In this document: positions 11,843 through 64,000 of the stretch, one piece after another
Numbering within the stretch: the first letter of the stretch is position 1
Layout of the letters: every line of letters starts with the position of its first letter
Origin: a virus
Lineage: Duplodnaviria > Caudoviricetes
Direction: 5' to 3' (one strand)
DNA: 64,000 nt
IMG/VR virus record: IMGVR_UViG_3300022752_000013
Made by a program: the position numbers and the translations under genes
The notes under the pieces: generated by a model
Databases searched by the model: none
Seen by the model: the letters and a program-made list of their open reading frames with translations, nothing else
Told to the model about the DNA's origin: nothing

Positions 11843-11872
11843 AAAGTAACACTTTTTTATTACCATAAAAAA

Positions 11873-11890
11873 GTAATACTCAAGTACTAC
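11873..11890. promoter_or_regulatory. Palindromic operator GTAATAC-TCAA-GTACTAC (degenerate tandem copy at 11846-11863)
   Basis: Same motif occurs at 36696, 46717, 49381, 61758 and 63960. Confidence 0.7.
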
Positions 11891-11920
11891 AAAACCCTGC
11901 CCTGTGCAGGGTTTTTCTTT
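11891..11920 (+). terminator. Rho-independent terminator
   Basis: AAAACCCTGC-CCTGT-GCAGGGTTTT followed by a T-rich tail. Confidence 0.85.
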
Positions 11921-11923
11921 TGG

Positions 11924-11952
11924 TTGACTCGAAATAGCCGAAATGTTATAAT
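11924..11952 (+). promoter_or_regulatory. Sigma70-type early promoter
   Basis: TTGACT-N17-TATAAT. Confidence 0.9.
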
Positions 11953-11958
11953 CATAAC

Positions 11959-12192
11959 ATGAAGTTAGAAATCAACGAAATACTACAGTGGACCGGAGCA
12001 GTGTTTATCATTGCAGGTCACAGTCTCAACGCCGTGGGTCCTGCGGCCTATCCCTACAATATCCTTGCATTTTTCCTGGGCACTATACTGTTCATGGCCT
12101 GGAGCATTCGTGTTGCAAATAAGCCACAGTTACTGGTGAACATTGTTGCCTTGGCAATTGGGCTCACAGGACTAGTCAAAGCATTTGGTTGA
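11959..12192 (+). CDS. Small multi-pass membrane protein
   Basis: 77 aa with three hydrophobic segments. Confidence 0.7.
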   Translation: MKLEINEILQWTGAVFIIAGHSLNAVGPAAYPYNILAFFLGTILFMAWSIRVANKPQLLVNIVALAIGLTGLVKAFG

Positions 12193-12217
12193 CCAATAAT
12201 TACCCATTTGCTATAAT
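12189..12217 (+). promoter_or_regulatory. Sigma70-type early promoter
   Basis: TTGACC-N17-TATAAT. Confidence 0.9.
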
Positions 12218-12247
12218 ATACACATACAGACACAAAAGGAGCCTAAA

Positions 12248-12520
12248 TTGAAACAACTGACTGAAAGCCAAAAACGTGAAGTTCGCATGTATGGTGTTAC
12301 CGAAGTCGAACTTCGCGAGAGTGTAGAACGTAGCATTACATTTCGTACGTCAGGACCTGCCATGATGGTGGCCGGGCTAATGAGCGATAGCCAAGAGATG
12401 GTGTCTTATGGTCCTCACGACAACGACAACTTTGCTAACATCTTGGAAGACCAGCGTTTGACTCTAAACCGTGCAAAATTTATTTTATTCACTTACATCA
12501 TGAACAGGGAAACAGCATGA
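12248..12520 (+). CDS. Hypothetical protein
   Basis: AAGGAG RBS, TTG start, 90 aa. Confidence 0.7.
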   Translation: MKQLTESQKREVRMYGVTEVELRESVERSITFRTSGPAMMVAGLMSDSQEMVSYGPHDNDNFANILEDQRLTLNRAKFILFTYIMNRETA

Positions 12521-12687
12521 GCCGTATGAGCGAACTTGATATTGACATTCGGTCCTTGCTGGAGAAGGGCCGGACTGCAATGGACATTGCCCGTGAACTG
12601 GAGATCCCGGTATCTTGGGTTTACGAGAAGCCAGAGGCACAAGAACCTGAAGAAGTTCTCAGCCCTTTTGCTACAATAAACAGTTGA
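12517..12687 (+). CDS. Small HTH-like hypothetical protein (56 aa, not in ORF track)
   Basis: MSRMSELDIDIRSLLEKGRTAMDIARELEIPVSWV; ATGA overlap. Confidence 0.55.
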   Translation: MSRMSELDIDIRSLLEKGRTAMDIARELEIPVSWVYEKPEAQEPEEVLSPFATINS

Positions 12688-12712
12688 CCAGAAATCCATT
12701 TTCGGTTATAAT
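12684..12712 (+). promoter_or_regulatory. Sigma70-type early promoter
   Basis: TTGACC-N17-TATAAT. Confidence 0.9.
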
Positions 12713-12743
12713 ACATTTTTAATTCATTAACTCAGGAGATTTT

Positions 12744-13112
12744 ATGTCTTATTCTTTTGCAGGTACTTCTGTACTAAAAGGTGAACTCAAAGTTCGTTTT
12801 GCTAACTCAGACGCTCGTGCCAAACAATTGGCCAAACTGGGCGACACAGATGTAAACATTGTTCAGTTGCCACGTGCAATGGACAAGTCCGAAGCGGTTG
12901 CATACTTGCTGGAGTCTGGCTTTGCCAAAGACATCTTGGTTCGTGCCGCACTTGAAGCCGAAGTGGCTCCCCGAGCCAAGGCTAAAGCACCACGCACGGT
13001 CAAAGTACGTGTGAAGTCAGTCAAGCCCAAAGCAAAGGTCAAAGTAGACCGCACCGCGGCCACTGAAGCCGAAGTGGATGCATTGTACGAGGCAGTTTAC
13101 GGTACCAAGTAA
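12744..13112 (+). CDS. Basic hypothetical protein (possible nucleic-acid binder)
   Basis: AGGAG RBS; K/R/A-rich C-terminal half. Confidence 0.7.
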   Translation: MSYSFAGTSVLKGELKVRFANSDARAKQLAKLGDTDVNIVQLPRAMDKSEAVAYLLESGFAKDILVRAALEAEVAPRAKAKAPRTVKVRVKSVKPKAKVKVDRTAATEAEVDALYEAVYGTK

Positions 13113-13258
13113 TGGTTATCAATGCCTTGTTTGTTTGGCTCAGTTGGCGAGTTGCCAACTGGTGCTTTGAAAACGACAGCCCTGGTTGGGGCTGGGTTAA
13201 TATTTTTTTCAGTGCTTACAACGGTGCTGTGATTATGTATCAATTATTAGGAGATTAA
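13112..13258 (+). CDS. Small membrane protein (48 aa, not in ORF track)
   Basis: TAATG coupling; MVINALFVWLSWRVANW... Confidence 0.45.
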   Translation: MVINALFVWLSWRVANWCFENDSPGWGWVNIFFSAYNGAVIMYQLLGD

Positions 13259-13259
13259 C

Positions 13260-13616
13260 GTGGGACTAGACATGTATGCATACACTGCCGCCAAAGAACA
13301 GGCAGATTACGAAACTGGTCAACGTGAGATTGCCTACTGGCGTAAACATCCTAATCTGCACGGTTGGATGGAACGACTTGCTGAATCTAAAAATGTCAAG
13401 TACGGCTCATTCAACGGTGTTGAACTAGAACTCACCTGGGAGGATCTGGATGAACTGGAACGTGCAATAACACATGACCAACTGCCAAGTACGCAGGGAT
13501 TCTTTTTTGGCAACGAGTCAGATGACTTTTACAAAGAACAAGATCTTGAATTCATCAAGAAAGCCCGAGCAGAATTGTTCTTGGGTTTAAAAGTGTTTTA
13601 TAACTCTTCATGGTAA
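13260..13616 (+). CDS. Conserved phage hypothetical protein
   Basis: MGLDMY...EIAYWRKHPNLHGWM motif; AGGAG RBS. Confidence 0.75.
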   Translation: MGLDMYAYTAAKEQADYETGQREIAYWRKHPNLHGWMERLAESKNVKYGSFNGVELELTWEDLDELERAITHDQLPSTQGFFFGNESDDFYKEQDLEFIKKARAELFLGLKVFYNSSW

Positions 13617-13628
13617 CCACTTAAATAT

Positions 13629-15002
13629 ATGAACGAGATCAATTTCTCAAATGAAAGGTTCGATGGCACGATGGCCGCAGGCTGGATCCGCGATCTAGAA
13701 AGTTCAGACAGCCGTATACACAAAGAAAAAACAATTGAAAAAGCATTAATGGCAGCCAAATTGGGCAGTGCCGATGCACAATGTTTTCTCTTTAATTGTT
13801 ACCAGGCCTACAATCCTTTCTACACTTTTAACATCCGTCAGGTGCCAGAGACTGAGGGTCTAACTGGTCGGCCCAACCCTTGGACAAAATTTTGGGGGTT
13901 GTTGGAAGCCCTACGCACAAGATCGAGCACAGGTAATCGTGCTAGAGAAGCCATTGAACAAATGAGTCAACAGTTTGATTCAGACGAGTGGAACAACTTG
14001 GCTCGACGTGTGATGACCAAGGATCTGCGTTGTGGTATCTCAGAAAAAACGCTAAACAAAGTACTGGGCAAAACAGAGTACCGGATTCCTGTGTTTACTT
14101 GTCAACTGGCGCAGGACTCTACAGACCAACCCAAGAAGTTGAAAGGCATCAAACGCCTAGAAGTCAAACTGGATGGTGTGCGAGTACTAGCAGTGGTTGA
14201 CGGCAGTAATGTCTCTCTGTTCAGTCGCAACGGCAAAGAGTTTGCAAACTTTACACAGATTGCAGACGCTATTGAAGATGCCCGTAAGCACTTTCAATGG
14301 GGTCGCGGCACAGGCGGACGTTTTGTATTGGATGGCGAGATTGTGGGCGAGAGTTTCCAGAAACTCATGAAGCAGGCACATCGCAAGAGTGATGCCAAGA
14401 CCGATGGCATGGTGTATCACATTTTTGATATTCTTCCATTGGAGTCATTGCAAGAAGGCCATTGTAACATACAACAGTACAAACGCATTGAGTGGATTGA
14501 GAGTGCCCGAGATCGGCTTTTGGAAACACCTTGCCTGCGTGTTATGAATGGCCTGGAGGTGGATTTGGACACAGCAGAAGGGCATGACATCATGAATCGT
14601 TTTGCCCAAGACGCTGTAGCCGAAGGCTTTGAAGGCATCATGATCAAGAGCCTGGATGCACCTTATGAGTGCAAACGCAGTGACTTTTGGATGAAATGGA
14701 AACCCACAATCTCAGTTGATCTCAATATAGTGGGTTTCGAAGAAGGAACTGGTCGCAATGCAGGCCGGTTAGGTGCTATAATATGTGAAGGAGAAGACAA
14801 TGACCGTAGAATTTGTGTTAATGTTGGTAGTGGGTTTAGTGATACTCTTCGTGATGAGTATTGGACCAGTAGGGATCAGTTACTTGGTCACTTGGTTGAA
14901 GTCCAAGCGGACGCAGTCACCCAAAATCAAGACGGAACATACAGCCTCCGATTCCCAAGGTTCTTGAGATTCCGTGACTTTGACGCTGGAGAAAAAATTT
15001 GA
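13629..15002 (+). CDS. ATP-dependent DNA ligase
   Basis: EVKLDGVR (motif I), VLDGEI, EGIMIK, WMKWK and SLRFPRFLRFR. Confidence 0.95.
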   Translation: MNEINFSNERFDGTMAAGWIRDLESSDSRIHKEKTIEKALMAAKLGSADAQCFLFNCYQAYNPFYTFNIRQVPETEGLTGRPNPWTKFWGLLEALRTRSSTGNRAREAIEQMSQQFDSDEWNNLARRVMTKDLRCGISEKTLNKVLGKTEYRIPVFTCQLAQDSTDQPKKLKGIKRLEVKLDGVRVLAVVDGSNVSLFSRNGKEFANFTQIADAIEDARKHFQWGRGTGGRFVLDGEIVGESFQKLMKQAHRKSDAKTDGMVYHIFDILPLESLQEGHCNIQQYKRIEWIESARDRLLETPCLRVMNGLEVDLDTAEGHDIMNRFAQDAVAEGFEGIMIKSLDAPYECKRSDFWMKWKPTISVDLNIVGFEEGTGRNAGRLGAIICEGEDNDRRICVNVGSGFSDTLRDEYWTSRDQLLGHLVEVQADAVTQNQDGTYSLRFPRFLRFRDFDAGEKI

Positions 15003-15193
15003 TGACACCTTTACATGATATTGTATTAGTAGCGGTTATGGTGGCACACAGTGCTTTTGGCCCTGCACAACTGGAGTACCAATCAGTTGATTATTTTAAC
15101 TCTTGGACTCGATGCCGCCAAGAGCAACAGAGATTGAGTCAAAAACAGGATAAAAGAACAGCATACATTTGTCTAAAGGTTGATAGGTCATAA
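14999..15193 (+). CDS. Hypothetical protein
   Basis: Coupled ORF in the + strand operon. Confidence 0.5.
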   Translation: MMTPLHDIVLVAVMVAHSAFGPAQLEYQSVDYFNSWTRCRQEQQRLSQKQDKRTAYICLKVDRS

Positions 15194-15421
15194 ATGACAG
15201 CACGATCAGCCAATGGTGTTTGCGGACATCTATTAAATCTAATTGACGGAACTGTAGTGTTTCGTGTGTATGATGCTGAACACAATTTCGTGGACTACGA
15301 TATACACCATAGTGACTTGTGTGTCACCATTGATGACACAGATGCGTACTTTTATCAACGAGATGGTCAAGACATATTGGATCATGCACCTATGACACTG
15401 GGGATGACAGATGATAGTTGA
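15194..15421 (+). CDS. Hypothetical protein
   Basis: 75 aa, abuts the upstream stop codon. Confidence 0.6.
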   Translation: MTARSANGVCGHLLNLIDGTVVFRVYDAEHNFVDYDIHHSDLCVTIDDTDAYFYQRDGQDILDHAPMTLGMTDDS

Positions 15422-15530
15422 AATATTTTTATACGGTTTTATCTCAGCATTCGGTTGGTGGACTGCCACGCACTATGTGATCGAACCACATTTTCCGCCA
15501 TCCATTGAAAAGAAAGCAGAGCAAAAATGA
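15411..15530 (+). CDS. Small membrane peptide (39 aa, not in ORF track)
   Basis: MIVEIFLYGFISAFGWWTATHYVIEP; fills the gap, with ATGA coupling to the next gene. Confidence 0.45.
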   Translation: MIVEIFLYGFISAFGWWTATHYVIEPHFPPSIEKKAEQK

Positions 15531-15967
15531 AAATTGGACTCAGTTATAGTCGATGTGTCCGTGATATTGTGGATGGTGTAGTGGACATTGCGGATGTGTT
15601 GGTTCTTATCACTCGTACAGATTTTGATCCGCATGATGACAACCAGTGGCAGGGCATTTGGGAAGGTTACGGCGGCGGCACAGAAAATGCTTACAGTCGT
15701 GGATTCTTTAGCCAAAGCAATCCAGAGTGGGCTGGCTATCACGATGAAGATCGTTTTCGTAGTGTGAGCATTGAACTTTGGGAAACTGGTCGATTACACC
15801 AGCCACGCAAGTTTGGCTTCCATCCTAGTCGTCGTCCTGAAATTTGGCTCGAAGCCGTTCTGCCCAGCAGTGAACTTGATCGTAACCCTGCGGCTAAAAA
15901 TGCTTGGGATCAGTTTCAAACCATTGCAGGCCTAACCAATGTCAAACTAGACAAGGAGTATCGATAA
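15527..15967 (+). CDS. Conserved phage hypothetical protein
   Basis: MKIGLSYSRCVRDIV...RLHQPRKFG. Confidence 0.7.
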   Translation: MKIGLSYSRCVRDIVDGVVDIADVLVLITRTDFDPHDDNQWQGIWEGYGGGTENAYSRGFFSQSNPEWAGYHDEDRFRSVSIELWETGRLHQPRKFGFHPSRRPEIWLEAVLPSSELDRNPAAKNAWDQFQTIAGLTNVKLDKEYR

Positions 15968-15968
15968 A

Positions 15969-16199
15969 ATGAGTAAACGTATTGGACCTATCACACTGGA
16001 CAGCGAGGCCGCTGATCGAATTACAGTGCTTACTCTCAAAGAACAACGGGCCCACCTCAAGAAGGAACTGACTGAGTGGAAGAAAGATCCCCGGTCAGAC
16101 TCAAATCCTGGTGGTAAGTGGATGCACCCTGAGGACGTGGCAATCAACACTCGCATGATTGAATCCTTAAACACAGTTATTAAGTACTTTGGCGAATGA
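15969..16199 (+). CDS. Hypothetical protein
   Basis: 76 aa, tight packing. Confidence 0.65.
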   Translation: MSKRIGPITLDSEAADRITVLTLKEQRAHLKKELTEWKKDPRSDSNPGGKWMHPEDVAINTRMIESLNTVIKYFGE

Positions 16200-16657
16200 A
16201 AAAAACTTACTACGAAAAACGTGGCCGCAGGTACGTGCCTGTGGCAGAAAACGACTACGACATGTTTGATGCCTTTCCCAAAGGATCACATCTTGTGATG
16301 TGTTACCCAGGCGGGCAAAGCAAACGCTACAATATTAATCCCAACCATGCGGCCTTGCTTGCGGCCAGTCGTGTGGCTGAGTTTGCCATGTGTGATGCTC
16401 TGCGCAAGGCCAGCGAAGTACAACCAAGTCGTACACCTCTCACACCTGAGCAAATGGCAGCCTGGAATCATCTGATTGAAGTGTTCGGTGAAGATGCTAG
16501 ATCTCTATCTCGGGCCAGTGCCCATGACATTGCCGAAGCAGGATTGAAAGCATTGCAATCGGAAGCAGATCGATTAATGAAACACGCAAGTGTAAAAAAT
16601 GCATACGAACAATTCCTGTTGGTATGCGAATTAACCAAGGAGAGCAAGAGTGCCTAA
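16196..16657 (+). CDS. Hypothetical protein
   Basis: 153 aa, ATGA overlap. Confidence 0.7.
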   Translation: MKKTYYEKRGRRYVPVAENDYDMFDAFPKGSHLVMCYPGGQSKRYNINPNHAALLAASRVAEFAMCDALRKASEVQPSRTPLTPEQMAAWNHLIEVFGEDARSLSRASAHDIAEAGLKALQSEADRLMKHASVKNAYEQFLLVCELTKESKSA

Positions 16658-17888
16658 AAAGCCCAAAATAGCAGAAGTAGAAACTGTAAATCCTGAGCAT
16701 GACAAACTCCTAGAGGTACTAAAGTTCACGCCACGCACCTACAAAATCAGCATGTGGGGCTATGGTGGCGAAAAAGTCATGGGCACAGTGGACCGTGCGG
16801 TATGGGACTACTGCATGGAACACCAAGTTGATCTTTCTGAAATTGCCTGGAGCGATGAAGAAACTGTGCAAGATGACATGAACCTTGATGTGGACCGGTT
16901 GCCATTCCCTCCAGGCTCCTGGTATGAATGTGATGACATGGCACATGTCAATGGCGTTAGCCGCAATGCCGGTACACTACAGATTGAAGATGAAACTGGT
17001 GCTGTAGTATTTGAACGGAGATTAGAAGATATGGATGGAGGCAGTGACGATAGCCCCGAATGGTCATGCAATGACGAAGCCTGGGTTGGCAGTAAGCCCG
17101 CTGGCACAGTGGTGTTCATCGGTACCAGCAATGAAAAAGGCACATTCTTTGAAGGCAATATTGAACTTACACAACCATTTGACATTACCAAACTAACTCT
17201 GGGCTACGATGACATTGACGGTGAGGAACTGGTCAACAGCGTGACCTATGATGATGAAGACATTGATAACTTTGGTGGTAGTACAGATGGTAAGAGTTCA
17301 GACTTTGGAATGTATCTTGTGATGGATAACAACACCTGGGAAACTTATGCGCCCGAAGAAAAAGACTGGGGTCATCCTCCGCATGGATCAAGTCCCAGCA
17401 CTTGGGAACGATCTGAGACATTTAAGTTTACAAAAGTCCAACCCACACTGCCTGGCTATTACAGTTGTACATGGAAGCACTTTGGCACAACATATGGCAC
17501 AGCATACTGGGATGGCACACAGTTTGGCGAATGGGAATACGGCAAGTTCAATCCTATTACAGGAGAGATTGTGACTTGGTCAGGATACAACTGGGACACC
17601 GGTTCATGGGTTAACCAACCACCAGAACCTGTAGATATTGCGTGTGACAATAAAAAATGCGGTTGGGTAGGAATGGCATCAGAGCGTCGTGAAGATGCAG
17701 ACTACAACGACCATTGCCCCGAATGCGATGGCACAGAGTTTACTTGGATTGACTATGATCCAGACTCAGCAGTTGGACGCAAGAATCGTGCTAAGTACTG
17801 CGAAGAGTGGGATCCTGCAATTGCAATGGATCGAATTGTAGCATCTGCAGATGAAGAACCGGCCAAGTGGCCAGCAACAAGACCTTAA
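16650..17888 (+). CDS. Acidic hypothetical protein with a C-terminal Zn-ribbon
   Basis: 412 aa; CDNKKC...HCPEC. Confidence 0.7.
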   Translation: MPKKPKIAEVETVNPEHDKLLEVLKFTPRTYKISMWGYGGEKVMGTVDRAVWDYCMEHQVDLSEIAWSDEETVQDDMNLDVDRLPFPPGSWYECDDMAHVNGVSRNAGTLQIEDETGAVVFERRLEDMDGGSDDSPEWSCNDEAWVGSKPAGTVVFIGTSNEKGTFFEGNIELTQPFDITKLTLGYDDIDGEELVNSVTYDDEDIDNFGGSTDGKSSDFGMYLVMDNNTWETYAPEEKDWGHPPHGSSPSTWERSETFKFTKVQPTLPGYYSCTWKHFGTTYGTAYWDGTQFGEWEYGKFNPITGEIVTWSGYNWDTGSWVNQPPEPVDIACDNKKCGWVGMASERREDADYNDHCPECDGTEFTWIDYDPDSAVGRKNRAKYCEEWDPAIAMDRIVASADEEPAKWPATRP

Positions 17889-36370: not shown

Positions 36371-36426
36371 AGGACGCTGGATAGGCCGGGTCCTAAAGTA
36401 AACTCGCTTTATAGGAGAACCATATG
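36371..36426 (+). promoter_or_regulatory. Second ROSE-like RNA thermometer
   Basis: Hairpin AGGAC...GTCCT, then CUCGCU-UUAU-AGGAG occluding the SD with a bulged G. Confidence 0.55.
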
Positions 36427-36699
36427 TTTACAGCAGACGCAATCATCGATACAGTTCAAACTGGTAAAAAAACTTTCGTTAACACATTCGTAACAAACGA
36501 AGCAACCAAAGAAGCAATGATTAAATTCATTGACGCACAAGCCGATTACACCAAAAAAGCCTCCAAGGTTGGTTTGGACACAGCAACCACGCTCACAAGC
36601 GAAGCAATGAAACAAGTGCAAGAAGTGGTTAAATTTGACTATGTCAAAGCAGGACAAGAATTCTTCAAAGCATTCCAGCCAGCAACAAGTAAAAAGTAA
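36424..36699 (+). CDS. Phasin-like small helical protein
   Basis: Amphipathic helices; IDAQADYTKKA pattern. Confidence 0.5.
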   Translation: MFTADAIIDTVQTGKKTFVNTFVTNEATKEAMIKFIDAQADYTKKASKVGLDTATTLTSEAMKQVQEVVKFDYVKAGQEFFKAFQPATSKK

Positions 36700-36713
36700 T
36701 ACCTTAGTATTAC
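36696..36713. promoter_or_regulatory. Palindromic operator (perfect copy)
   Basis: GTAATAC-CTTA-GTATTAC. Confidence 0.75.
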
Positions 36714-36720
36714 CATTTGC

Positions 36721-36746
36721 AAGCCCTGTATAACGCAGGGCTTTCT
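36721..36746 (+). terminator. Rho-independent terminator
   Basis: AAGCCCTG-TATAACG-CAGGGCTT followed by T-rich sequence. Confidence 0.75.
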
Positions 36747-36747
36747 C

Positions 36748-36776
36748 TTGACCAATAATTGCCATTCTGCTATACT
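36748..36776 (+). promoter_or_regulatory. Sigma70-type early promoter
   Basis: TTGACC-N17-TATACT. Confidence 0.85.
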
Positions 36777-36782
36777 TGCCAC

Positions 36783-37070
36783 ATGAGATACTTAATACCG
36801 TTGATTGTTGTGGTAGCAGGCTGTGCCAATGTGCGTCCACCTGTGGATGTTACTCTCATACCCAATGACTGTGCCAACCAGCCGGCAATCATCAATTGGT
36901 TGGAAGAACAAAGCCGACTTTCCCCTTCAACTTTTTCTGACAAGGATCAATATGCAAGACACCGTGCCTCGATTCGCCAACGTGTATGGAATATGCGTTA
37001 CACTTGCAATCCTGCTGACTACAGGTTGCTCAACTGTGCAAAGAACGCCAATGGCGTTTGTGGATCTTGA
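36783..37070 (+). CDS. Putative lipoprotein
   Basis: MRYLIPLIVVVAGC lipobox. Confidence 0.7.
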   Translation: MRYLIPLIVVVAGCANVRPPVDVTLIPNDCANQPAIINWLEEQSRLSPSTFSDKDQYARHRASIRQRVWNMRYTCNPADYRLLNCAKNANGVCGS

Positions 37071-46711: not shown

Positions 46712-46739
46712 CAAGATTAGTACTCAAGTACTAATCTTG
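46712..46739. promoter_or_regulatory. Palindromic operator within a 12-bp perfect inverted repeat
   Basis: CAAGATTAGTAC-TCAA-GTACTAATCTTG. Confidence 0.7.
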
Positions 46740-46744: not shown

Positions 46745-46773
46745 TTGACTTGAAATACCCAAAGTGCTATAAT
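46745..46773 (+). promoter_or_regulatory. Sigma70-type early promoter
   Basis: TTGACT-N17-TATAAT. Confidence 0.9.
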
Positions 46774-46798: not shown

Positions 46799-48022
46799 AT
46801 GATTGTGCCAAAAATTTGTTGTTTATTAATGTGTCTAGCACTTGTGGCCTGTGGGGGCGGGGGTGGTGGCGGAAGCAGTGGGACTCCTGCAAGTTCTGCA
46901 TCTATTGCCGTGAAAATAATCAATCAAGGCACTGCAATACATAACAACAAGGTCAAAAACTATGCGGTGGGAGATTTAAACAACGATGGACTTGATGATG
47001 TGGTAATTGGGGGGTGGTCAGGATCTGGGACCTCGTATCTTGCAATTATGATACAAAACTCCAACGGAACGTTAACAGAGCGCACCACAGAACTATTAGG
47101 CAGCAACTCTTACCCGGGCAGTGGTCACATTTTTATTTGGGATTTTGACCACGATGGCCATGCGGATATATGGCTACCGGGTGCTGATGATTTTGTTAGT
47201 TCTTCTAACAGTCTAATGTTGTGGGGTAGCGCCGCCGGAACTTTTAGTAAACAAACCTTCAGTGAATCCATGTCTAGTGCCGGTGCCTGTTTATTTGATC
47301 TCAACAACGACGGCAACATGGACATGCTGGTTCGAGGAACCTACAATCGAAATACAAATACATACGGATATTACTTGAATCAGGGCAATAGAACTTTTAC
47401 ATTTGTTGCTGATCAATATGTAAATGGTGCCAGTGCATGTGCAGTGATACGTGATTCTACCACTGGGCATCTGGCCGCGATGCAAGGTGGCAACAGCCAA
47501 GGTGCCACTGCGGACGCCATTAGCATTGTTGATGCAAATCTTGGGTTGATCAAACTGATACCCGTTCCCAGACAAGACAATGCCATGGCCGGAATGATTG
47601 GGGTTGTGACAGCAGATGTTAATGAAGACGGACTGTTGGATTTTATAACTCTATATGAGGCCTCTAGTGCAGGATTACCAGGACGCAAAGAAGTTTGGTT
47701 AAATCAAGGATCAGACAATTTTTCCTATGCCTACGCTTTGGATACTGCCTATAACAGCAATGGAGATATTGTTAATTTTGTTTATCAAGGTATACAATAT
47801 TACTTCTTTAATGGGCCCAATGGGGATGCTACATTTTACCAACTGGCCAATGGCGTTTTAAATCTTTATCAACGTGATACTTTTTTGAGCATGGCTCGAT
47901 TGTTAGGAGCCAATCCTGGTGTAAAAGATTGGAGCGTGTTTTCTGCTACTGTATATCGTGGCAGTGAGGGGATTTATATACTTCAGGAGTTGAAATCGAT
48001 ATACTACACACAAAAACTTTAA
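46799..48022 (+). CDS. FG-GAP/VCBS-repeat lipoprotein
   Basis: LVACGGGGGGG lipobox; repeats GDLNNDGLDDV, DFDHDGHADI, DLNNDGNMDM and DVNEDGLLDF. Confidence 0.85.
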   Translation: MIVPKICCLLMCLALVACGGGGGGGSSGTPASSASIAVKIINQGTAIHNNKVKNYAVGDLNNDGLDDVVIGGWSGSGTSYLAIMIQNSNGTLTERTTELLGSNSYPGSGHIFIWDFDHDGHADIWLPGADDFVSSSNSLMLWGSAAGTFSKQTFSESMSSAGACLFDLNNDGNMDMLVRGTYNRNTNTYGYYLNQGNRTFTFVADQYVNGASACAVIRDSTTGHLAAMQGGNSQGATADAISIVDANLGLIKLIPVPRQDNAMAGMIGVVTADVNEDGLLDFITLYEASSAGLPGRKEVWLNQGSDNFSYAYALDTAYNSNGDIVNFVYQGIQYYFFNGPNGDATFYQLANGVLNLYQRDTFLSMARLLGANPGVKDWSVFSATVYRGSEGIYILQELKSIYYTQKL

Positions 48023-48089: not shown

Positions 48090-48314
48090 ATGAACAATTG
48101 GGACAAAGGAAATTTGGATTTTATCTTGAATTCAACTGATGCGGATATGGAAGATTTCTTATCCTGGGCATCAGATGAAGATTTAAGATATGCGCTAGAA
48201 TTGATTCAAATAGCCAAAAACGAATTGGTTATACAAGAAATTGAAATTCTAGATATCAAGGCCGATGAGGATTTTTCACAAGCACAGGCAGTGCTAGAAC
48301 GATTCCGCTTGTGA
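48090..48314 (+). CDS. Small acidic hypothetical protein
   Basis: AAGGAG RBS. Confidence 0.7.
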   Translation: MNNWDKGNLDFILNSTDADMEDFLSWASDEDLRYALELIQIAKNELVIQEIEILDIKADEDFSQAQAVLERFRL

Positions 48315-49384
48315 AAATACGACTGATCGGTAAACGCAACAACTTGGGTATTGGCACCCATTTTGCAAACTTTGCAGATGCATTGAAACGTGTGAGTCAC
48401 TGGGGTGCCTGTGTTGAAGAGTTTGATTGCGAAGATCCGCAGAGACTACTGGCCGAAGCACGTATCAGTGAACCAGGCGATATCAACATCTGTTTTGTGA
48501 GCATACCCTTGCAAGATTACTTTAAAGGTACCAACATTCAATGGGTGGTGTTTGAAAGTACCCTAGTACCACCCACCGTGATGAGCACCATGCTCACCGC
48601 AGATCAAGTGTGGGTTCCTAGTGCCTGGGGTCAATCTGTGCTGATTGAAAATGGTCTGGATCCTGCCCGTTGTGAGATAGTGCCGGAAGGGGTGGATACA
48701 GATCGATATCATCCTTATGCACCCAGAGTCAACAGTCCTATCTTGACCTATTTGATCACAGGCAAATATGAATTGAGAAAAAGCATCATAGAAACTGTGT
48801 ATGCCTGGCACCAAGAATTTGGCAATGATCCTGATGTTGAACTGGTGATCAAGACTGATCATTTCTTCAACAAAGAAGCCAAGTACAATGAACTCACTCA
48901 ATGGATTGGGGAACTTGGCTTGACCAATGTGCGTGTGATGTGGGGCTCAGTACCAGCCAATGACATGGCAGATCTTTATCAACAGGCTCATGTGTTTGTG
49001 TTGCCCTCCAAAGGTGAAGGTTGGGGACTTCCGCTAATCGAAGCCGCGGCAGTGGGCCTGCCTATCATCACAACCTGGCACAGTGCTCACACAGAATTCT
49101 TGCAACACATACAATCCAGTGTGATAACAGTGGAATATGACATGGTGCCGGTTGCTTGTCAGGATTATCAGTTGTTCTACCCCACAACAGATGGCAATTG
49201 GGGCGAGTGGGCACAACCCCGAATTGACAGCATAAGGCAAGCATTAAAAACCAGTCGACAAAGTTATACATATCTACAAAAAAGAGCCAGAGAAAACAGC
49301 CACATTATACGCAACAACTTTTCCTGGGCACAGGTAGCAGACAGAGCCTTGCAGATACTGCAAAAACACGGGTTGCTAAAGTAA
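48311..49384 (+). CDS. GT4-family glycosyltransferase
   Basis: VWVPSAW, IVPEGVD and VLPSKGEGWGLPLIEAAAVG. Confidence 0.9.
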   Translation: MKIRLIGKRNNLGIGTHFANFADALKRVSHWGACVEEFDCEDPQRLLAEARISEPGDINICFVSIPLQDYFKGTNIQWVVFESTLVPPTVMSTMLTADQVWVPSAWGQSVLIENGLDPARCEIVPEGVDTDRYHPYAPRVNSPILTYLITGKYELRKSIIETVYAWHQEFGNDPDVELVIKTDHFFNKEAKYNELTQWIGELGLTNVRVMWGSVPANDMADLYQQAHVFVLPSKGEGWGLPLIEAAAVGLPIITTWHSAHTEFLQHIQSSVITVEYDMVPVACQDYQLFYPTTDGNWGEWAQPRIDSIRQALKTSRQSYTYLQKRARENSHIIRNNFSWAQVADRALQILQKHGLLK

Positions 49385-49398
49385 TACTTTAGTACTAC
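49381..49398. promoter_or_regulatory. Palindromic operator
   Basis: GTAATAC-TTTA-GTACTAC. Confidence 0.75.
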
Positions 49399-49409: not shown

Positions 49410-49438
49410 TTGACTCAAAACCGTACTTTTGCTATAAT
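49410..49438 (+). promoter_or_regulatory. Sigma70-type early promoter
   Basis: TTGACT-N17-TATAAT. Confidence 0.9.
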
Positions 49439-49468: not shown

Positions 49469-49720
49469 ATGCGACATGTAGCCGGGTTTAGTAACAGCAC
49501 CCGAATTCGTTTTATCGTCAACGGTTTTGGTATGTACGGTACCATCAATGACATCTACACAAAAACAGCCACAGTCACACATGGTGCCGCTCTGCGCTTG
49601 GCAATCCAAAAATTGGCTTACGATCGCCGTCGCAGTAGTTTCACAGGTGCCGGTCGCCCAGTGGGTGTGGGCATCACGCATGAAGGCATCGACGTACAAA
49701 TCACTTTAATGGCCAACTAA
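49469..49720 (+). CDS. Hypothetical early protein
   Basis: AAGGAG RBS before ATG 49469. Confidence 0.7.
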   Translation: MRHVAGFSNSTRIRFIVNGFGMYGTINDIYTKTATVTHGAALRLAIQKLAYDRRRSSFTGAGRPVGVGITHEGIDVQITLMAN

Positions 49721-52335: not shown

Positions 52336-52602
52336 ATGCGTTTTAATCCAGAAACTAAGACTTTTAAAGTCTTCAATGCACTCTACAACGGCGAAACTTT
52401 GACTCCATCAGAAGCAAAGAAGCGTTTTGGCGTGGGCAACCTCAGTGCCGAAGCCAGCCGTATCCGTCAAGCCGGTTTTGCTGTTTATAGCAACAGCCGT
52501 GTTGCCGGTAATGGTGTCAAGGTTACAGAATATGTAATTGGGAAACCATCAAGAAAAATCGTAGCCGCAGGCTACAAAGCAATGGCCATGGGCTTGGTCT
52601 AA
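52336..52602 (+). CDS. Winged-HTH-like DNA-binding protein
   Basis: LTPSEAKKRFGVGNLSAEASRIRQAG, followed by a beta-hairpin. Confidence 0.6.
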   Translation: MRFNPETKTFKVFNALYNGETLTPSEAKKRFGVGNLSAEASRIRQAGFAVYSNSRVAGNGVKVTEYVIGKPSRKIVAAGYKAMAMGLV

Positions 52603-58726: not shown

Positions 58727-58738
58727 ATGTGCTACAAT
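58710..58738 (+). promoter_or_regulatory. Sigma70-type early promoter
   Basis: TTGACT-N17-TACAAT. Confidence 0.8.
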
Positions 58739-58743
58739 AAATC

Positions 58744-58920: not shown

Positions 58921-58923
58921 GAT

Positions 58924-59154
58924 ATGTTCGAGCATGAGATACGTATAGAAAATGCTGGTCCTGACGACGGCATATACTGGAGCCATGAACTGCAAGTGAC
59001 CGGCCTGATTCAAGATCAAGACTATGTGTGGCAATACATGCCGGCTTGGGACGACAATTTTGGATCCGACAATTCATCGCCTCGAGCCGTGGTGTTTGCG
59101 TTTAGCAATCCTGCCCTGGCAACCTTTTATCAATTGAAATGGCAACGTTGCTAA
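58924..59154 (+). CDS. F...W family small protein
   Basis: VFAFSNPALATFYQLKW. Confidence 0.7.
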   Translation: MFEHEIRIENAGPDDGIYWSHELQVTGLIQDQDYVWQYMPAWDDNFGSDNSSPRAVVFAFSNPALATFYQLKWQRC

Positions 59155-59372
59155 TGAAACAACACATGCTACCCGAAACTGCTCGAATGTTTGACCAGTG
59201 TGTACATTGTGTGACACCACGAAAAGATGCATACGGACCAGATATCATGCGTTGGCTTACTGAAAATATAATCAAAACTGAAGCAGGATTCAGGCCTTGG
59301 ACTAGAACAGATCGAGAATTCCGATTCATGCACGAACGTGATGCTGTGGTGTTTGCACTCAAATGGTCATGA
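59139..59372 (+). CDS. F...W family small protein
   Basis: FRFMHERDAVVFALKWS. Confidence 0.7.
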   Translation: MATLLMKQHMLPETARMFDQCVHCVTPRKDAYGPDIMRWLTENIIKTEAGFRPWTRTDREFRFMHERDAVVFALKWS

Positions 59373-59560
59373 CTCATACAGTAAGAATACCCTGGCGAAA
59401 GGGCGACACGATTTCTAAATGGGACGAAGTATGTGTTTGGGTAATTGAAGAATTTGGCTTGCCTGGTGAACGTTATTCAACACACCCTAAACACGATGCT
59501 ATGTTTTTTGTTTTCCAGGACAGCCGGGACGCTATATACTTCAAACTCCGATGGCTATAA
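59369..59560 (+). CDS. F...W family small protein
   Basis: FVFQDSRDAIYFKLRWL. Confidence 0.7.
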   Translation: MTHTVRIPWRKGDTISKWDEVCVWVIEEFGLPGERYSTHPKHDAMFFVFQDSRDAIYFKLRWL

Positions 59561-59787
59561 AAACTGCTGAAGACACAATACGATTGGGCGACAGTTTCAG
59601 TCATGCCTGTAGAATTCAAAAAAACTACGGTGTGTTGGAACAAATACTAGCATGGTCAAAAGAGAGTTTGACAGCAGAATGGCGTTGGCAACTGGTCAGT
59701 GTAAGTTCAGATATCCGCCCAGGAGATTACATTTTCTACTTTGATAGTGAGCGTGACTATCTAGCATTTGTTATGAAATGGTTATAA
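59551..59787 (+). CDS. F...W family small protein
   Basis: FYFDSERDYLAFVMKWL. Confidence 0.7.
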   Translation: MAIKTAEDTIRLGDSFSHACRIQKNYGVLEQILAWSKESLTAEWRWQLVSVSSDIRPGDYIFYFDSERDYLAFVMKWL

Positions 59788-60083
59788 GTAAAATTATGCA
59801 CACACCTCAAGAACGAGACAAAAGAAATCTACGTATTCAACGTGACGAAAATGCCATTCGAAAACAAGCCAAGATTGCCCGGGCACATGGCATGGATGTA
59901 AAAGAGCCACACAAGTTTGTCAAGCATCATGCCATGGACTGTGGACAACCAGGTTGTGTCCTGTGTGGTAATCCAAGAAAAACATTTAGTGAATTGACCA
60001 CACAAGAAAAACGCCTGTTCCAGGATGTAGAACAGCCGCGTGACAAACATTCAAACGGCTTGCCCCGGGATCAAAATGATTGA
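59778..60083 (+). CDS. Basic Cys/His protein (possible Zn-binding)
   Basis: KHHAMDCGQPGCVLCGNPRK. Confidence 0.7.
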   Translation: MVISKIMHTPQERDKRNLRIQRDENAIRKQAKIARAHGMDVKEPHKFVKHHAMDCGQPGCVLCGNPRKTFSELTTQEKRLFQDVEQPRDKHSNGLPRDQND

Positions 60084-60285
60084 TTTTGACATAACCATGC
60101 AACGTATTAAGAACTTGGCTGAGTACGAAGTTCAAGTCACTGTGCCTGAAACATTTAGTTTTCGCGGCCAAGTGCCTTGGGACATGCAGATCCTGGGCAA
60201 CCAGGCCTTTGTGACAGTTATCGCAGCCAGCCTTACTGAGGCTCGAAGCAGAGTAGAAGAATATTTTAATTTCAAGGAAGAATAA
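60076..60285 (+). CDS. Hypothetical protein
   Basis: 69 aa from ATG 60076. Confidence 0.6.
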   Translation: MIDFDITMQRIKNLAEYEVQVTVPETFSFRGQVPWDMQILGNQAFVTVIAASLTEARSRVEEYFNFKEE

Positions 60286-60286
60286 T

Positions 60287-60532
60287 ATGGACATGGATCA
60301 ATCGGCAGTATTTTTGGCCGGAAGTATTTTAACAGCACTAGGATTTGTTGTGTTTGTTATTGCTATTGTCATAGTCAACAACATCATACATCGTTGGTGG
60401 AAGCCATTGGGTTGGACATTTGGATGGATAGCCGCACCCACAAGATTTGCCACACCGGAAGAACTGGAACAACCTCCAAAAATAGAACCTGTAATCGATA
60501 AAAAAGATGAACCGAAAGCAAAAACTAATTGA
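60287..60532 (+). CDS. Small membrane protein
   Basis: TM helix; AAGGA RBS. Confidence 0.65.
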   Translation: MDMDQSAVFLAGSILTALGFVVFVIAIVIVNNIIHRWWKPLGWTFGWIAAPTRFATPEELEQPPKIEPVIDKKDEPKAKTN

Positions 60533-60719
60533 GCAGGCAGGCTTTAGTAAGACCTTTGAAGCAGATCGACTGAATCACTTGATTGATCTTACTGTAAACC
60601 AATGCATTGTTGCTATCACCAACTCTTCACGAGATCACTGTCCCACAACCTATGATCAGGACCAATGGGCCAGCACCATCGAACGGTGCGTTCAAAGTGT
60701 AAAACAACAGTTTCGGTAA
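60507..60719 (+). CDS. Hypothetical protein
   Basis: MNRKQKLIEQAGF leader. Confidence 0.6.
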   Translation: MNRKQKLIEQAGFSKTFEADRLNHLIDLTVNQCIVAITNSSRDHCPTTYDQDQWASTIERCVQSVKQQFR

Positions 60720-60721
60720 GA

Positions 60722-60750
60722 TTGACAACTTAATCCTGTGGTGTTATACT
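60722..60750 (+). promoter_or_regulatory. Sigma70-type early promoter
   Basis: TTGACA-N17-TATACT. Confidence 0.85.
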
Positions 60751-60769
60751 ATGATCAAAGGAGCAGGTT

Positions 60770-61105
60770 ATGGGCACAAGTACTTTTGTGGTGGTATGGG
60801 ACAATACTGGTTTGGAATATGTGGGCAACGTCACTGAGGACGAGCAACGCCGTGTGTGGGGTGAACTCAACGGCAAGCCTGTGTCGAGCCAACTGCCCAA
60901 CGTAAACCATCTTGTGCTCAGGGCTAGATACAACAGCCAACGTCATTATGAAATCTATTTGATAGCGGCCACAGATGGAATAACTACAAATGACATACGT
61001 AATATGTTTGAGGCTTCTCCCCAAACAGCCGCGGACACCATACGTAGACTTGGTCACTGTTACTACAGTGGCCGAGCAGATACAAGTAAAATACTAATTA
61101 CATAA
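60770..61105 (+). CDS. Hypothetical protein
   Basis: AAGGAG RBS; LRARYNSQRHYEIY. Confidence 0.75.
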   Translation: MGTSTFVVVWDNTGLEYVGNVTEDEQRRVWGELNGKPVSSQLPNVNHLVLRARYNSQRHYEIYLIAATDGITTNDIRNMFEASPQTAADTIRRLGHCYYSGRADTSKILIT

Positions 61106-61111
61106 ATCAAA

Positions 61112-61756
61112 ATGGCAACTCTACAACAAGTTTGTGATTATAATCGGGCTCAGGTAAATTGGATCAAACTGTATTCAATGATCGATACTCTCGGCACAAC
61201 CATGAACGGAAAAAAAGATCGGTTTGACAAAAGCGATCTCATTGAGATGGGCATGGACATCTATAGTAATGGAGGAATCAAACTTGTAAATCTTGATGGT
61301 GTGGACCACGAACTGGTAAACTTGCCAAGCGCAAAAGGCCTACCAACCACACAGGAAATGAAGTTTGATAGCAAACTTTTTTACAAAATGATTAGTGTCC
61401 AACGTGCCAATCGACGTCGAGGAATCGAAGGCCGGAAAGAATTGCAACGATCAAATGATCCTGTCACGCTAAAATTGGTCAACACACAGGGAGAGAACAA
61501 TTACACTGAGTTGCCAGATACATACGCAGAATTTTTACTAGCGGCAGACAACCATAGTGCTCATGTGATCGAGGTTGCCACATTGAAGCCGTATTTGAAA
61601 TTTCCTAATGATGGAATCACAGCAGTCAACGTTCCATCAAACTTGTTTATGCAGGTGGTTGGCCCAGACGATATCACTGCCAGGCAGCCCCTGGCAAATT
61701 TCAACTACAAACAAGAGAAGTTGGCATTTCAAAGAAACTTTTTAAACAAGTTCTAA
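61112..61756 (+). CDS. Hypothetical protein, possible PD-(D/E)XK nuclease
   Basis: E-(n)-GVD-(n)-QEMK arrangement. Confidence 0.45.
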   Translation: MATLQQVCDYNRAQVNWIKLYSMIDTLGTTMNGKKDRFDKSDLIEMGMDIYSNGGIKLVNLDGVDHELVNLPSAKGLPTTQEMKFDSKLFYKMISVQRANRRRGIEGRKELQRSNDPVTLKLVNTQGENNYTELPDTYAEFLLAADNHSAHVIEVATLKPYLKFPNDGITAVNVPSNLFMQVVGPDDITARQPLANFNYKQEKLAFQRNFLNKF

Positions 61757-61757
61757 A

Positions 61758-61775
61758 GTAGTACTTTAGTATTAG
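61758..61775. promoter_or_regulatory. Palindromic operator abutting the -35 element
   Basis: GTAGTAC-TTTA-GTATTAG. Confidence 0.65.
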
Positions 61776-61776
61776 A

Positions 61777-61805
61777 TTGACAACGACCGAGTTTTGCTAT
61801 ATAAT
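61777..61805 (+). promoter_or_regulatory. Sigma70-type early promoter
   Basis: TTGACA-N17-TATAAT. Confidence 0.9.
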
Positions 61806-61880
61806 AGAAACTGTTGGGTAGGCATAGTGCCTACTAACACTTAACCAATCCTGTATTGTACAGGTAAAGAAGGAAAAATT

Positions 61881-62933
61881 ATGGCACAGAAACGCCTCAC
61901 ACGTAAACTTACGGATGTGATTGCTGAAGTTGAAACTCAACTACGAGCACACTACGGTGTAACCCAAAAAGATCTCGATGCATGGCGAGTCCGTGCAAAG
62001 GCTTTATCACACCGATTTCCCACTAGTTCAATGATTGCTATTGAAGACCTTTGGATTGATTATGAAGTCCAACGTGATGTCTTGCACAAGCACATTATTA
62101 ATATCATTCGGAAATGGGATCCACGCATTTGTAGTCCTGGTTCTGCTTGCCGCTTTGGCGGAAAACCTCCGATCTATTTGTATGATGCACAACACCGTAC
62201 CATTGCGGCCGGACTGCTAGGCTATACTGAAATTCCGTGTGCTGTAGTAGAAACAGATGAACTTAATTTTGCAAGTTATGCATTTGAACTGCTCAATGAC
62301 ACAGGCGTCAAACGATTAACTCCGGGGGATTTGCATCGCAATGCCTTGGTGCGTTTTAAAAATGGCAGCGGTGATAAGAAAGTTGTGGATGCCCGCACCA
62401 TGCAGGATCAATTTGATACCGCAGGTATTGACTTGCAAGACAAAGGATCACGTGCGTCAGACAACTTGCGTGGTGACAATGATTACTTCTTTAGTCACTT
62501 TAAGTATGCACAAAAAGGCATTGAGATTGATGACAGTGGCAAAATACTTTTAGAAATTTTAACTGCAATCAAAGACACGTTTCCACTGCAAGAAGAAATT
62601 GATCAAGGTTGCTACATTGGATTATACGAACTGCATCGTATCTCGAGCAATAGTGCCAACAGCAAACTACCAACAGGATGGATGAAGGCAGTACTTGAAG
62701 CAATCAAGCCCACGTTCAAGAGTTCCTCATTGATACATACCAAGGCTAAAATACAATGGGATTATGTAAACCCTGGTGCTACTTGGTCAGCCCCTAGTGC
62801 TATGTCTAACTTTTTACGTGAGTTATACATCCGTAATAGTGGCAAGATTAATTTACCATACCACGGTGAAGGTGCCAAGATGGGTATCGAAGAAGGCAAC
62901 ATTGCCCCAGGCTTGTTTCCTGAAGGAGCATAA
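61881..62933 (+). CDS. ParB/Srx-like domain protein
   Basis: IDYEVQRDV and YLYDAQHRTIAA (ParB-like DGQHR variant). Confidence 0.65.
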   Translation: MAQKRLTRKLTDVIAEVETQLRAHYGVTQKDLDAWRVRAKALSHRFPTSSMIAIEDLWIDYEVQRDVLHKHIINIIRKWDPRICSPGSACRFGGKPPIYLYDAQHRTIAAGLLGYTEIPCAVVETDELNFASYAFELLNDTGVKRLTPGDLHRNALVRFKNGSGDKKVVDARTMQDQFDTAGIDLQDKGSRASDNLRGDNDYFFSHFKYAQKGIEIDDSGKILLEILTAIKDTFPLQEEIDQGCYIGLYELHRISSNSANSKLPTGWMKAVLEAIKPTFKSSSLIHTKAKIQWDYVNPGATWSAPSAMSNFLRELYIRNSGKINLPYHGEGAKMGIEEGNIAPGLFPEGA

Positions 62934-62934
62934 A

Positions 62935-63399
62935 ATGAATTTCATGATTGAAAATTTATTGGGTAAGCAAGCAGATAAAAAGGTTACCTTTGCTCAGGCA
63001 TTTAAAACTTTGCTAGATATGGACTTGATCAACATTGGCGAAGTAGGCGAGCAGACTATTAGTAATGCCAGTGGTGTTGAAAGATGTCCTCGCAATACCG
63101 CTAAAATTGATTTAGTATCAGGTGTGCAAATTAAAACCGCACAAACCCATCCTGACAAAGAAAAATTGCAGGCGTATTTTGCACCAGGTAACACCAACGC
63201 CCCAATATTGTTAATGGTAATAGAAAGATTAACTGGAAAAGAGTACTTTTTCTTTTTTCAATATAAAGATTACAAAAATACAATCGGTTCTAGTGTTTGT
63301 CTACCGTTTTTCTTGGATGGAACCCCACGTCGATCTAACAGTTGGTGGGATTACGAAATTACATTCGATGAACTTTGTAAGTTAGCAAAAAATGATTAA
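62935..63399 (+). CDS. Possible PD-(D/E)XK endonuclease-like protein
   Basis: EVGE...KIDLVSGVQIKTA; AAGGAG RBS. Confidence 0.45.
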   Translation: MNFMIENLLGKQADKKVTFAQAFKTLLDMDLINIGEVGEQTISNASGVERCPRNTAKIDLVSGVQIKTAQTHPDKEKLQAYFAPGNTNAPILLMVIERLTGKEYFFFFQYKDYKNTIGSSVCLPFFLDGTPRRSNSWWDYEITFDELCKLAKND

Positions 63400-63955
63400 T
63401 CTTAAAGAATCCTTAGACCAATTCACAGCACCGGTGTACGGCAAAACCAAACGCACCGCTGACACTTATCAGACGGTAGCCGACTATTGTCGCCGCAACT
63501 TGGTTCGCTTGGTTGCTGACTATCATGCCGTTCAAAACGATCAACAACTGCTGAGAGAGATCCGCAACGACATTGACACATATCTACGCAGGTATCACGA
63601 GTACTGTATCCAACAACGTGATGGTATGAAAGCACACTACCACGAAATTGGAGCGGATGAAGAATGTGATTTTGAGCATTTGATTCCAGCGGCTCGTATT
63701 CGTGACTTGCTTTTGGCCAGTGCCATTTCTGTAGAGCAGGCTCTCAATGCACCAACTGTGAGGTTGAGTCGTTCCAAACACATGGCTCTTAAGGAAGCAG
63801 GTTGGGCCAGTACCACTCCAGACATGTGGCAACCGTTTAGGCGTTACACTCAAGTGTTTGACGCTAAGTACGAAACACATGATGGAACACCAATTGACCC
63901 CGAAACTTGGACCTTGCAACAGCACTTTGACTATTTCAAGCATCTTGTGCTTTAA
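63392..63955 (+). CDS. Hypothetical protein with HNH-like EHxxP motif
   Basis: CDFEHLIPAARIRD. Confidence 0.5.
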   Translation: MINLKESLDQFTAPVYGKTKRTADTYQTVADYCRRNLVRLVADYHAVQNDQQLLREIRNDIDTYLRRYHEYCIQQRDGMKAHYHEIGADEECDFEHLIPAARIRDLLLASAISVEQALNAPTVRLSRSKHMALKEAGWASTTPDMWQPFRRYTQVFDAKYETHDGTPIDPETWTLQQHFDYFKHLVL

Positions 63956-63959
63956 AAAA

Positions 63960-63977
63960 GTAATACTCAAGTACTAC
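63960..63977. promoter_or_regulatory. Palindromic operator, followed by TTGACC at 63989 (promoter runs off the window)
   Basis: GTAATAC-TCAA-GTACTAC. Confidence 0.75.
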
Positions 63978-64000
63978 TTTTTGCCCGGTTGACCAATATC

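Follow-up and report, generated by a model that had tools for sequence, protein, structure and literature searches.

Promoter-early stem-loop (PeSL) cassettes have been described in the T4-type phages RB49/phi1, PST/T4 and nt-1/KVP40 (Arbiol et al., 2010, PMC2839356; Comeau et al., 2014, PMC4122927) and are the closest published kind of element to the cassettes analyzed here, which were found in a 64,000-nucleotide stretch of Caudoviricetes DNA (IMG/VR record IMGVR_UViG_3300022752_000013), in the following called the window. In both cases a stem-loop terminator is located just upstream of a near-consensus sigma70-type promoter that is followed by a conserved leader and a Shine-Dalgarno sequence, and in both cases the arrangement recurs between small variable genes, at places where related phages have gained, lost or displaced genes. 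In the window and in more than 100 loci the promoter has the form TTGACC-N17-TGCTATAAT and is followed by CATAG..CAAAAAGGAG. Unlike published PeSLs, which have just an AT-rich stretch upstream and no defined palindrome (the string 'palindrom' is absent from Comeau et al., 2014, PMC4122927), a subset of the cassettes studied here adds an 18-bp palindromic element, GTARTAC-N4-GTAYTAC, upstream of the stem-loop and at helically phased distances. This conserved element, here referred to as the dyad, goes beyond what the published PeSL definition includes.

The dyad is a real and conserved element that is specific for phages, independent of orientation and phased relative to the promoters it accompanies. 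A scan of the window for GTARTAC-N4-GTAYTAC with up to two mismatches returned seven sites where 0.33 are expected, and none of 100 dinucleotide-preserving shuffles gave seven. Four copies, starting at positions 11873, 36696, 49381 and 63960, are exact, that at 61758 deviates by one mismatch and those at 46717 and 11846 by two. All seven had been listed in an initial annotation of the sequence and were recovered exactly where it had placed them. Likewise borne out were the gaps it had given between dyad and TTGAC −35 box, i.e. 33 nt (11873), 34 nt (36696), 10 nt (46717), 11 nt (49381), 1 nt (61758) and 11 nt (63960), with Rho-independent terminator hairpins inside the 33- and 34-nt gaps at 11873 and 36696. 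Each window dyad lies 3' of a gene end, the stop codon often adjoining the motif or falling within it. Most other sigma70-type promoters indeed lack the site: among the approximately 16-18 strong ones in the window (TTGAC-N17-(TG)nTATAAT), nearly all of which reside on the plus strand, only six are accompanied by a dyad.

Syntenic relatives of 214-374 kb are available in IMG/VR. One of them, G002 (364 kb), has terminal repeats and aligns with 1-60 kb of the window at 70-80% nucleotide identity in reverse order. Five large relatives (214-374 kb) contain 6-12 dyads each at no more than one mismatch, compared with 0-1 for a reversed-pattern control, and almost all of them are situated upstream of TTGACC-N17-TGCTATAAT promoters. 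When a slightly looser pattern was applied to these five relatives and the window, again with at most one mismatch, 57 dyads were obtained versus five for the reversed-pattern control; a strong promoter is present within 125 nt of 46 of the 57 dyads in these six genome-scale sequences. Counting 7-mers in front of strong promoters without reference to any motif led to the same element: AGTACTA, GTACTAC, GTAATAC and AGTATTA rank top in the relatives G002-G005 and G011, where they exceed expectation 20-30 fold. IMG/VR contains 103 loci with the exact 18-mer GTAATACTCAAGTACTAC, and nearly all of them share one layout consisting of a gene end, the dyad, an optional terminator, a TTGACC −35 box, TGCTATAAT and a conserved leader that contains AAGGAG. 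Only six occurrences of this 18-mer were encountered across 596 Gb of bacterial genomes, a number at or below chance, and two of these six matches are phage cassettes mis-binned into metagenome-assembled genomes of unrelated phyla.

The dyad is present on a minority (about 10-35%) of a phage's host-type promoter-terminator cassettes, as exemplified by G002 with its approximately 65 strong promoters and 5-7 dyads, and it is gained or lost between close relatives. In the genomes G007 (262 kb), G015 (332 kb) and G017 (357 kb) dyads are not above chance, and a replacement palindrome was not found in these three. A copy located within a gene (G002 10139-10156 and G004 157896-157913) provides the codons for E-Y-Y-I-G-I-T in a GIY-YIG-like (Seg-type) protein; it seems to owe its sequence to coincidental coding and not to be a site.

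The distances between dyad and promoter are strongly constrained. In 95 non-redundant cassettes, the gaps between dyad and −35 box fall into classes of 0-1, 7-11, 21, 30-35 and 42-44 nt; apart from a few gaps of 57-63 nt, which belong to the distal member of a tandem pair, and one case each at 25 and 39 nt, the intervals between the classes are empty. The Rayleigh statistic for this set is R = 0.71 at a period of 10.75-11 bp. The same classes emerged from the whole-genome set anchored on the −10 hexamer (R = 0.73, n = 46), in which the nominal gaps are −1 to 2, 7-12, 20-22, 31-35 and 43-46 nt with none in between. If the −35 box is set at −35 to −30, the dyad centres come to lie at −44.5, −55, −65.5, −77 or −87.5. 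Selection on length is indicated by compensated totals and by class switching. About half of the dyad cassettes have a terminator upstream of the promoter, and although the hairpins of this class are unrelated, differ in size and are flanked by 0-17 and 0-13 nt, most totals still amount to 30-35 nt. Orthologous downstream genes, on the other hand, switch between gap classes: values of 7, 8, 33 and 34 nt are found in the DUF6552 family, 0, 10, 11, 32 and 34 nt in another family and 0, 1, 9 and 10 nt in a family of 441-aa proteins. The initial annotation had proposed that the window sites constitute a regulon whose dimeric factor acts on one face of the helix; for a regulon-like set read by a symmetric factor in this way, the phasing in the relatives thus provides much stronger evidence than the six window sites themselves.

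The consensus of the element is GTA-R-TAC-T-NN-A-GTA-Y-TAC, that is 18 bp comprising two GTANTAC units that are 11 bp apart. The 7-bp units, G1, C7, G12 and C18 included, are nearly invariant; T8 and A11 are likewise conserved, unlike the central dinucleotide, which is free. As each unit is its own reverse complement except for the middle base, the site fits two descriptions equally well, namely an inverted repeat and a direct repeat of 11-bp period. A set of orthologous sites 3' of a gene for a 91-aa protein, the TAA stop codon of which lies inside the dyad, is instructive in this respect: at 60-95% protein identity the units are kept and the spacers vary (ATTA, CAAA, CTTA, TCAA, TCTA, TAAA, GCAA, TCGA). 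The commonest dyad variant folds at just −0.5 kcal/mol as RNA or single-stranded DNA, and the unit centre is unable to pair in 20 of 50 unbiased sites (40%). Conserved units, a variable centre, a weak fold and unpaired unit centres together point to a protein site on duplex DNA and not to a hairpin. The dyad is found in either orientation relative to the promoter, with a TCAA:TTGA bias of 60:11. In nine distinct loci, among them that at 11846 in the window, a second and often weaker dyad is present 27-28 bp away.

Contigs of the G001 type (L135, L138-L142, L039, L049, L070) additionally have a second AT-rich palindrome, TTGTTGYAAAAATRCAACAA, between dyad and promoter. The pattern GTTGNA-N4-TNCAAC occurs nine times in G001 versus three times for a control, and the promoters near the dyad in this genome lack a good −35 box and rely on an extended −10 element.

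Which protein could read the dyad was addressed by co-occurrence profiling and family searches. The initial annotation had named a winged helix-turn-helix protein (52336-52602) as one candidate. The protein exists, belongs to family HTH_39 and is encoded as a single copy, with 63-86% identity, in every relative with a match; however, it is also kept in the dyad-free genomes G007, G015 and G017, in the first of these with an unchanged putative recognition helix, and nothing supports it as the binder. A ParB/Srx-like protein (61881-62933; P0122) first looked promising because a dyad lies upstream of its gene in the window and in G005 and because it is absent from the dyad-free G007. Its gene directly follows the dyad in the window, as does the orthologue in G005 and a distant homologue in G003. 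This candidate was rejected, since orthologues are present in the dyad-free genomes G015, G017 and G022, whereas the dyad-rich and complete G002 has no close orthologue; in only three of 61 orthologous loci is there a dyad upstream.

Presence and absence of all G002 open reading frames was then compared between the dyad-rich genomes G001, G011 and G003-G005 and the dyad-free G007, G015 and G017, the final profile setting two complete and three partial dyad-rich genomes against the three dyad-free ones. The profile was matched by just two products, a membrane protein of 92 aa and that of a doubtful 67-aa open reading frame, and none of the candidates from the comparison of all G002 open reading frames is annotated as DNA-binding. 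Family searches gave no match in the relatives for HTH_3, Trp_repressor, HU/IHF, GerE or sigma70 region 4, nor for an ADP-ribosyltransferase of the Alt/Mod type; Peptidase_S24 had no match in seven relatives, and AsiA and MotCF had none in five, in searches that lacked a positive control. Because no phage gene tracks the dyad, its reader is more probably a host regulator, RNA polymerase itself or a core phage protein than the product of a dedicated accessory gene.

A very acidic helical protein of 74 aa (window 48090-48311) was detected in the window and in G002, G003, G004, G005 and G011 and was not detected in G001, G007, G015 and G017. In G002 its gene is located directly 3' of a dyad that abuts the −35 box. 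The protein is too acidic for DNA binding and might therefore act on the polymerase or on a DNA-binding protein.

On the basis of these findings we consider it probable that the dyad is a sequence-specific site on duplex DNA for a two-fold symmetric factor that touches RNA polymerase from one helical face. Binding of a protein to the dyad and contact of that protein with the polymerase are inferred from conservation and spacing. A homodimer or two tandem monomers would occupy the two GTANTAC units, and the bound factor would contact the polymerase on one face, the geometry being compatible with a contact of the class I/II type via the alpha C-terminal domain or sigma region 4. The outcome could be either extra recruitment or a shut-off in which polymerase is held at a near-consensus promoter, as by phi29 p4 at A2c. 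As the promoters are near consensus, such shut-off by over-stabilisation is as plausible as activation. Several observations weigh against the proposed role of the dyad. The need for an activator is not obvious at promoters that are already near consensus, the dyad-binding protein was found neither by co-occurrence profiling nor by family searches, and the close relatives G015 and G007 manage without a dyad and without a replacement element. The distance of 27-28 bp between tandem dyads corresponds to a non-integral number of helical turns. The Rayleigh p-values overstate independence because the cassettes share ancestry, and inheritance of three architectures could account in part for the three main gap classes. 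Finally, no RNA run is among the public sequencing runs that contain the window.

Alternatively, mobile PeSL-type cassettes might carry the dyad as a passenger or as a recombination module that is kept by copying and homologous recombination and has no regulatory role of its own. The layout matches that of PeSLs in stem-loop, sigma70-type promoter, conserved leader and Shine-Dalgarno sequence, synteny between the window and G002 breaks at or beside the dyad at 11918, 36716 and 46709, the DUF6552 cassette resides in different neighbourhoods in these two sequences, and homology to G015 ends at the edge of the dyad. The great diversity of downstream genes and the gain and loss of the dyad between close relatives fit as well. 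Nevertheless, we regard this explanation as unlikely, for descent would have conserved the spacer and the flanks too, and only the units and T8/A11 are conserved; moreover, phasing, length compensation around unrelated terminators and the fixed distance of 27-28 bp to a second site would be left unexplained, and most cassettes shuffle without a dyad, as the small share of dyad promoters in G002 illustrates (about 5-7 dyads for about 65 strong promoters).

In another reading, the units would be a special UP-like element, each GTANTAC docking one alpha C-terminal domain of the host polymerase, native or phage-modified, without any separate regulator. Helical periodicity of the placement of this domain is established for UP elements and class I promoters; two units 11 bp apart would correspond to proximal and distal UP subsites, and unit centres at −39/−50, −50/−61, −60/−71, −72/−83 and −82/−93 show just this periodicity. 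That no phage gene tracks the dyad and that several common DNA-binding families went undetected in the relatives would also be accounted for. Known UP elements, however, consist of A/T tracts and have no invariant G or C, in contrast to the dyad with its nearly invariant G1, C7, G12 and C18; the unit centres are 2-3 bp off the canonical −42/−52, an Alt/Mod-type ADP-ribosyltransferase was not detected in the relatives, and dyad symmetry together with a second site at fixed distance is more reminiscent of an operator, so that docking of this kind appears distinctly improbable. Very improbable, in our view, is a function for the upstream transcription unit, in which the element would act as an RNA 3'-end hairpin or as a protein roadblock that aids termination and keeps read-through away from the next promoter. 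The position of the dyad at or over the upstream stop codon and 5' of the terminator, where there is one, would suit such a role, as would the perfect 28-bp palindrome at 46712-46739, but the hairpin is marginal (−0.5 to −5 kcal/mol), its centre pair is mismatched in 40% of the sites, many copies abut the −35 box without any terminator, and the spacing follows the downstream −35 box and not the upstream stop.

By analogy with T4-type phages the dyad promoters are presumably early. It is conceivable, though we are inclined to doubt it, that the dyad marks a separate temporal promoter class in a large T4-like clade seemingly devoid of MotA/AsiA, where a host-encoded or core phage factor reads the phased operator and boosts or shuts off a changing subset of early cassettes. 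If true, this would amount to MotA-independent timing of pre-replicative genes in distant relatives of T4. The scheduling of early and middle genes in T4-like phages outside the T-even group is poorly understood, and phasing, length compensation and class switching provide strong comparative evidence, gained from sequences of uncultured phages, for a fixed operator that works at strong host-type promoters from a single helical face. The 18-bp dyad represents a clean bait for finding the factor, and the dyad-rich and dyad-free sister genomes form a natural comparison set. Should the factor turn out to be a host regulator, the dyad would also serve, in this abundant group of lake phages, as a marker of the range or the physiology of their hosts.

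The individual cassettes of the window are organized as follows. Dyad site 1 (GTAATACTCAAGTACTAC, 11873-11890) lies 3' of the stop codon of gene 11300-11842 and is preceded at a distance of 27 bp by the distal degenerate copy GTAACACTTTTTTATTAC (11846-11863, two mismatches). A terminator hairpin with T tract (11891-11923, plus strand) separates site 1 from the promoter TTGACT-N17-TATAAT (11924-11952, plus strand), which drives the gene for a DUF6552 membrane protein (11959-12192). Site 2 (GTAATACCTTAGTATTAC, 36696-36713) contains the TAA stop of the 91-aa gene 36424-36699 and is followed on the plus strand by a terminator hairpin (36714-36747) and the promoter TTGACC-N17-TATACT, the whole unit spanning 36714-36776 and driving a lipoprotein gene starting at 36783. 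Site 3 (TTAGTACTCAAGTACTAA, 46717-46734) forms the core of the 28-bp palindrome at 46712-46739, CAAGATTAGTAC-TCAA-GTACTAATCTTG, in which the other dyad copies have no counterpart; the promoter TTGACT-N17-TATAAT (46745-46773, plus strand) drives an FG-GAP lipoprotein gene (46799-48022). Site 4 (GTAATACTTTAGTACTAC, 49381-49398) overlaps the end of a glycosyltransferase gene (48311-49384), and its promoter TTGACT-N17-TATAAT (49410-49438, plus strand) drives a small gene ending at 49720. Site 5 (GTAGTACTTTAGTATTAG, 61758-61775) is followed by the promoter TTGACA-N17-TATAAT (61777-61805, plus strand) of the ParB/Srx-like gene (61881-62933). Site 6, again GTAATACTCAAGTACTAC (63960-63977), is accompanied by the −35 box TTGACC (63989-63994, plus strand); only this part of the promoter is visible because the window stops there and the remainder lies past its end.

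The start codons of the DUF6552 and lipoprotein genes are placed 7 nt 3' of the −10 hexamer without a Shine-Dalgarno sequence (window 11947-11961 and 36771-36785), and the mRNAs of both genes (that of the lipoprotein at 36783) look leaderless from this arrangement, which for the DUF6552 gene is kept in G002 and several IMG/VR loci. The ParB/Srx-like gene possesses a long conserved 5' leader (window 61806-61880; loci L291-L352). A hairpin just 5' of its Shine-Dalgarno sequence (61855-61869) has a covarying stem (CCCGC/GTCGGG, GACGT/ACGTC, CTGGC/GCCAG, CCTGT/ACAGG) and a loop that stays ATTGT or ATGGT; most likely the hairpin serves as a translational operator or some other RNA element. It had no match in Rfam, and no Rfam family was matched elsewhere within the window.

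The genes downstream of dyads in the window encode the DUF6552 membrane protein (11959), two lipoproteins (36783; FG-GAP, 46799), the small protein ending at 49720 and the ParB/Srx-like protein (61881), which is related to DUF6551. The initial annotation had assigned envelope proteins and a nuclease cassette to the control of the palindrome. A membrane protein and two lipoproteins are indeed located downstream, as is the ParB/Srx-like protein, but this picture does not hold for the relatives, in which more than 45 unrelated families, mostly of 60-100 aa, follow the dyad. There is no coherent functional regulon, the dyad being an optional component that a promoter cassette may or may not include.

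A close relative of the window phage is absent among deposited phage genomes (INPHARED), and its DNA ligase is 32% identical to a ligase from an SPO1-like phage. Public sequencing runs that contain the window are lake and freshwater metagenomes. psbA was not found in the relatives, and the phage is therefore not a typical cyanophage. G002 encodes a permuted (two-piece) transfer-messenger RNA with the tag ANDEKFLMAA as well as about 30 tRNAs (L143 2616-3134; L160-L161); the resemblance of this tag to beta/gamma-proteobacterial tags is a weak lead to a possible proteobacterial host. Ribosomal protein bS21 is also phage-encoded (Pfam Ribosomal_S21, E 1e-17; G002 147634-147858), with a homologue in the window near 22120-22362.

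Beyond PeSLs, several known regulatory systems invite comparison with the dyad. The initial annotation had pointed to LexA boxes, and in letters the likeness is real: the copy at 46717 (AGTAC-N4-GTACT) fits the cyanobacterial LexA box RGTACNNNDGTWCB exactly, the other window copies being at least one letter off (compared by eye with the consensus), and the dyad shares 12 of the 14 specified positions of the symmetric E. coli trp operator (GTACTAGTTAACTAGTAC) as well as its length of 18 bp. No link beyond the letters was found, however. Dyads end 0-44 nt upstream of the −35 box and none lies over the promoter or downstream of the −35 box, a placement that is wrong for a repressor operator such as that of LexA or trp; neither an S24/LexA nor a TrpR family protein was found in the phages searched, the relatives lack psbA, and in bacteria the 18-mer is not enriched. 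In T4 middle mode (MotA/AsiA) a MotA box at −30 replaces the −35 box; dyad promoters keep a consensus −35 box.

The KorB operators (OB) of plasmid RK2, with VirB and Noc as other regulators of the ParB family, resemble the present case in that a dozen dispersed palindromes are located beside or distant from a subset of promoters, and in the window a ParB/Srx-like gene even follows a dyad; this protein, however, does not co-occur with the dyad. Sites of class I/II activators, such as those of CRP at −41.5, −61.5 and −72.5 or the 18-bp tra box of TraR at about −45 and −65, share with the dyad an approximately 18-bp two-fold symmetric site upstream of or abutting the −35 box and allowed positions that are one helical turn apart. 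In sequence the dyad is unrelated to CRP and tra boxes as well as to TGTGA-N6-TCACA or TTGAT-N4-ATCAA of CRP/FNR-type sites, its centres are 3-5 bp off those of CRP, its promoters are near consensus, and a CRP-, LuxR- or GerE-type protein was not seen in the phages examined. Protein p4 of phi29 binds an inverted repeat upstream of the host-type promoters A3 and A2c, contacts the alpha C-terminal domain, activates the weak promoter and represses the strong one by holding polymerase. Its site, CTTTTT-N15-AAAATG, differs from the dyad and no p4 relative was identified, but its mode of action is one that dyads at strong early promoters could plausibly follow.

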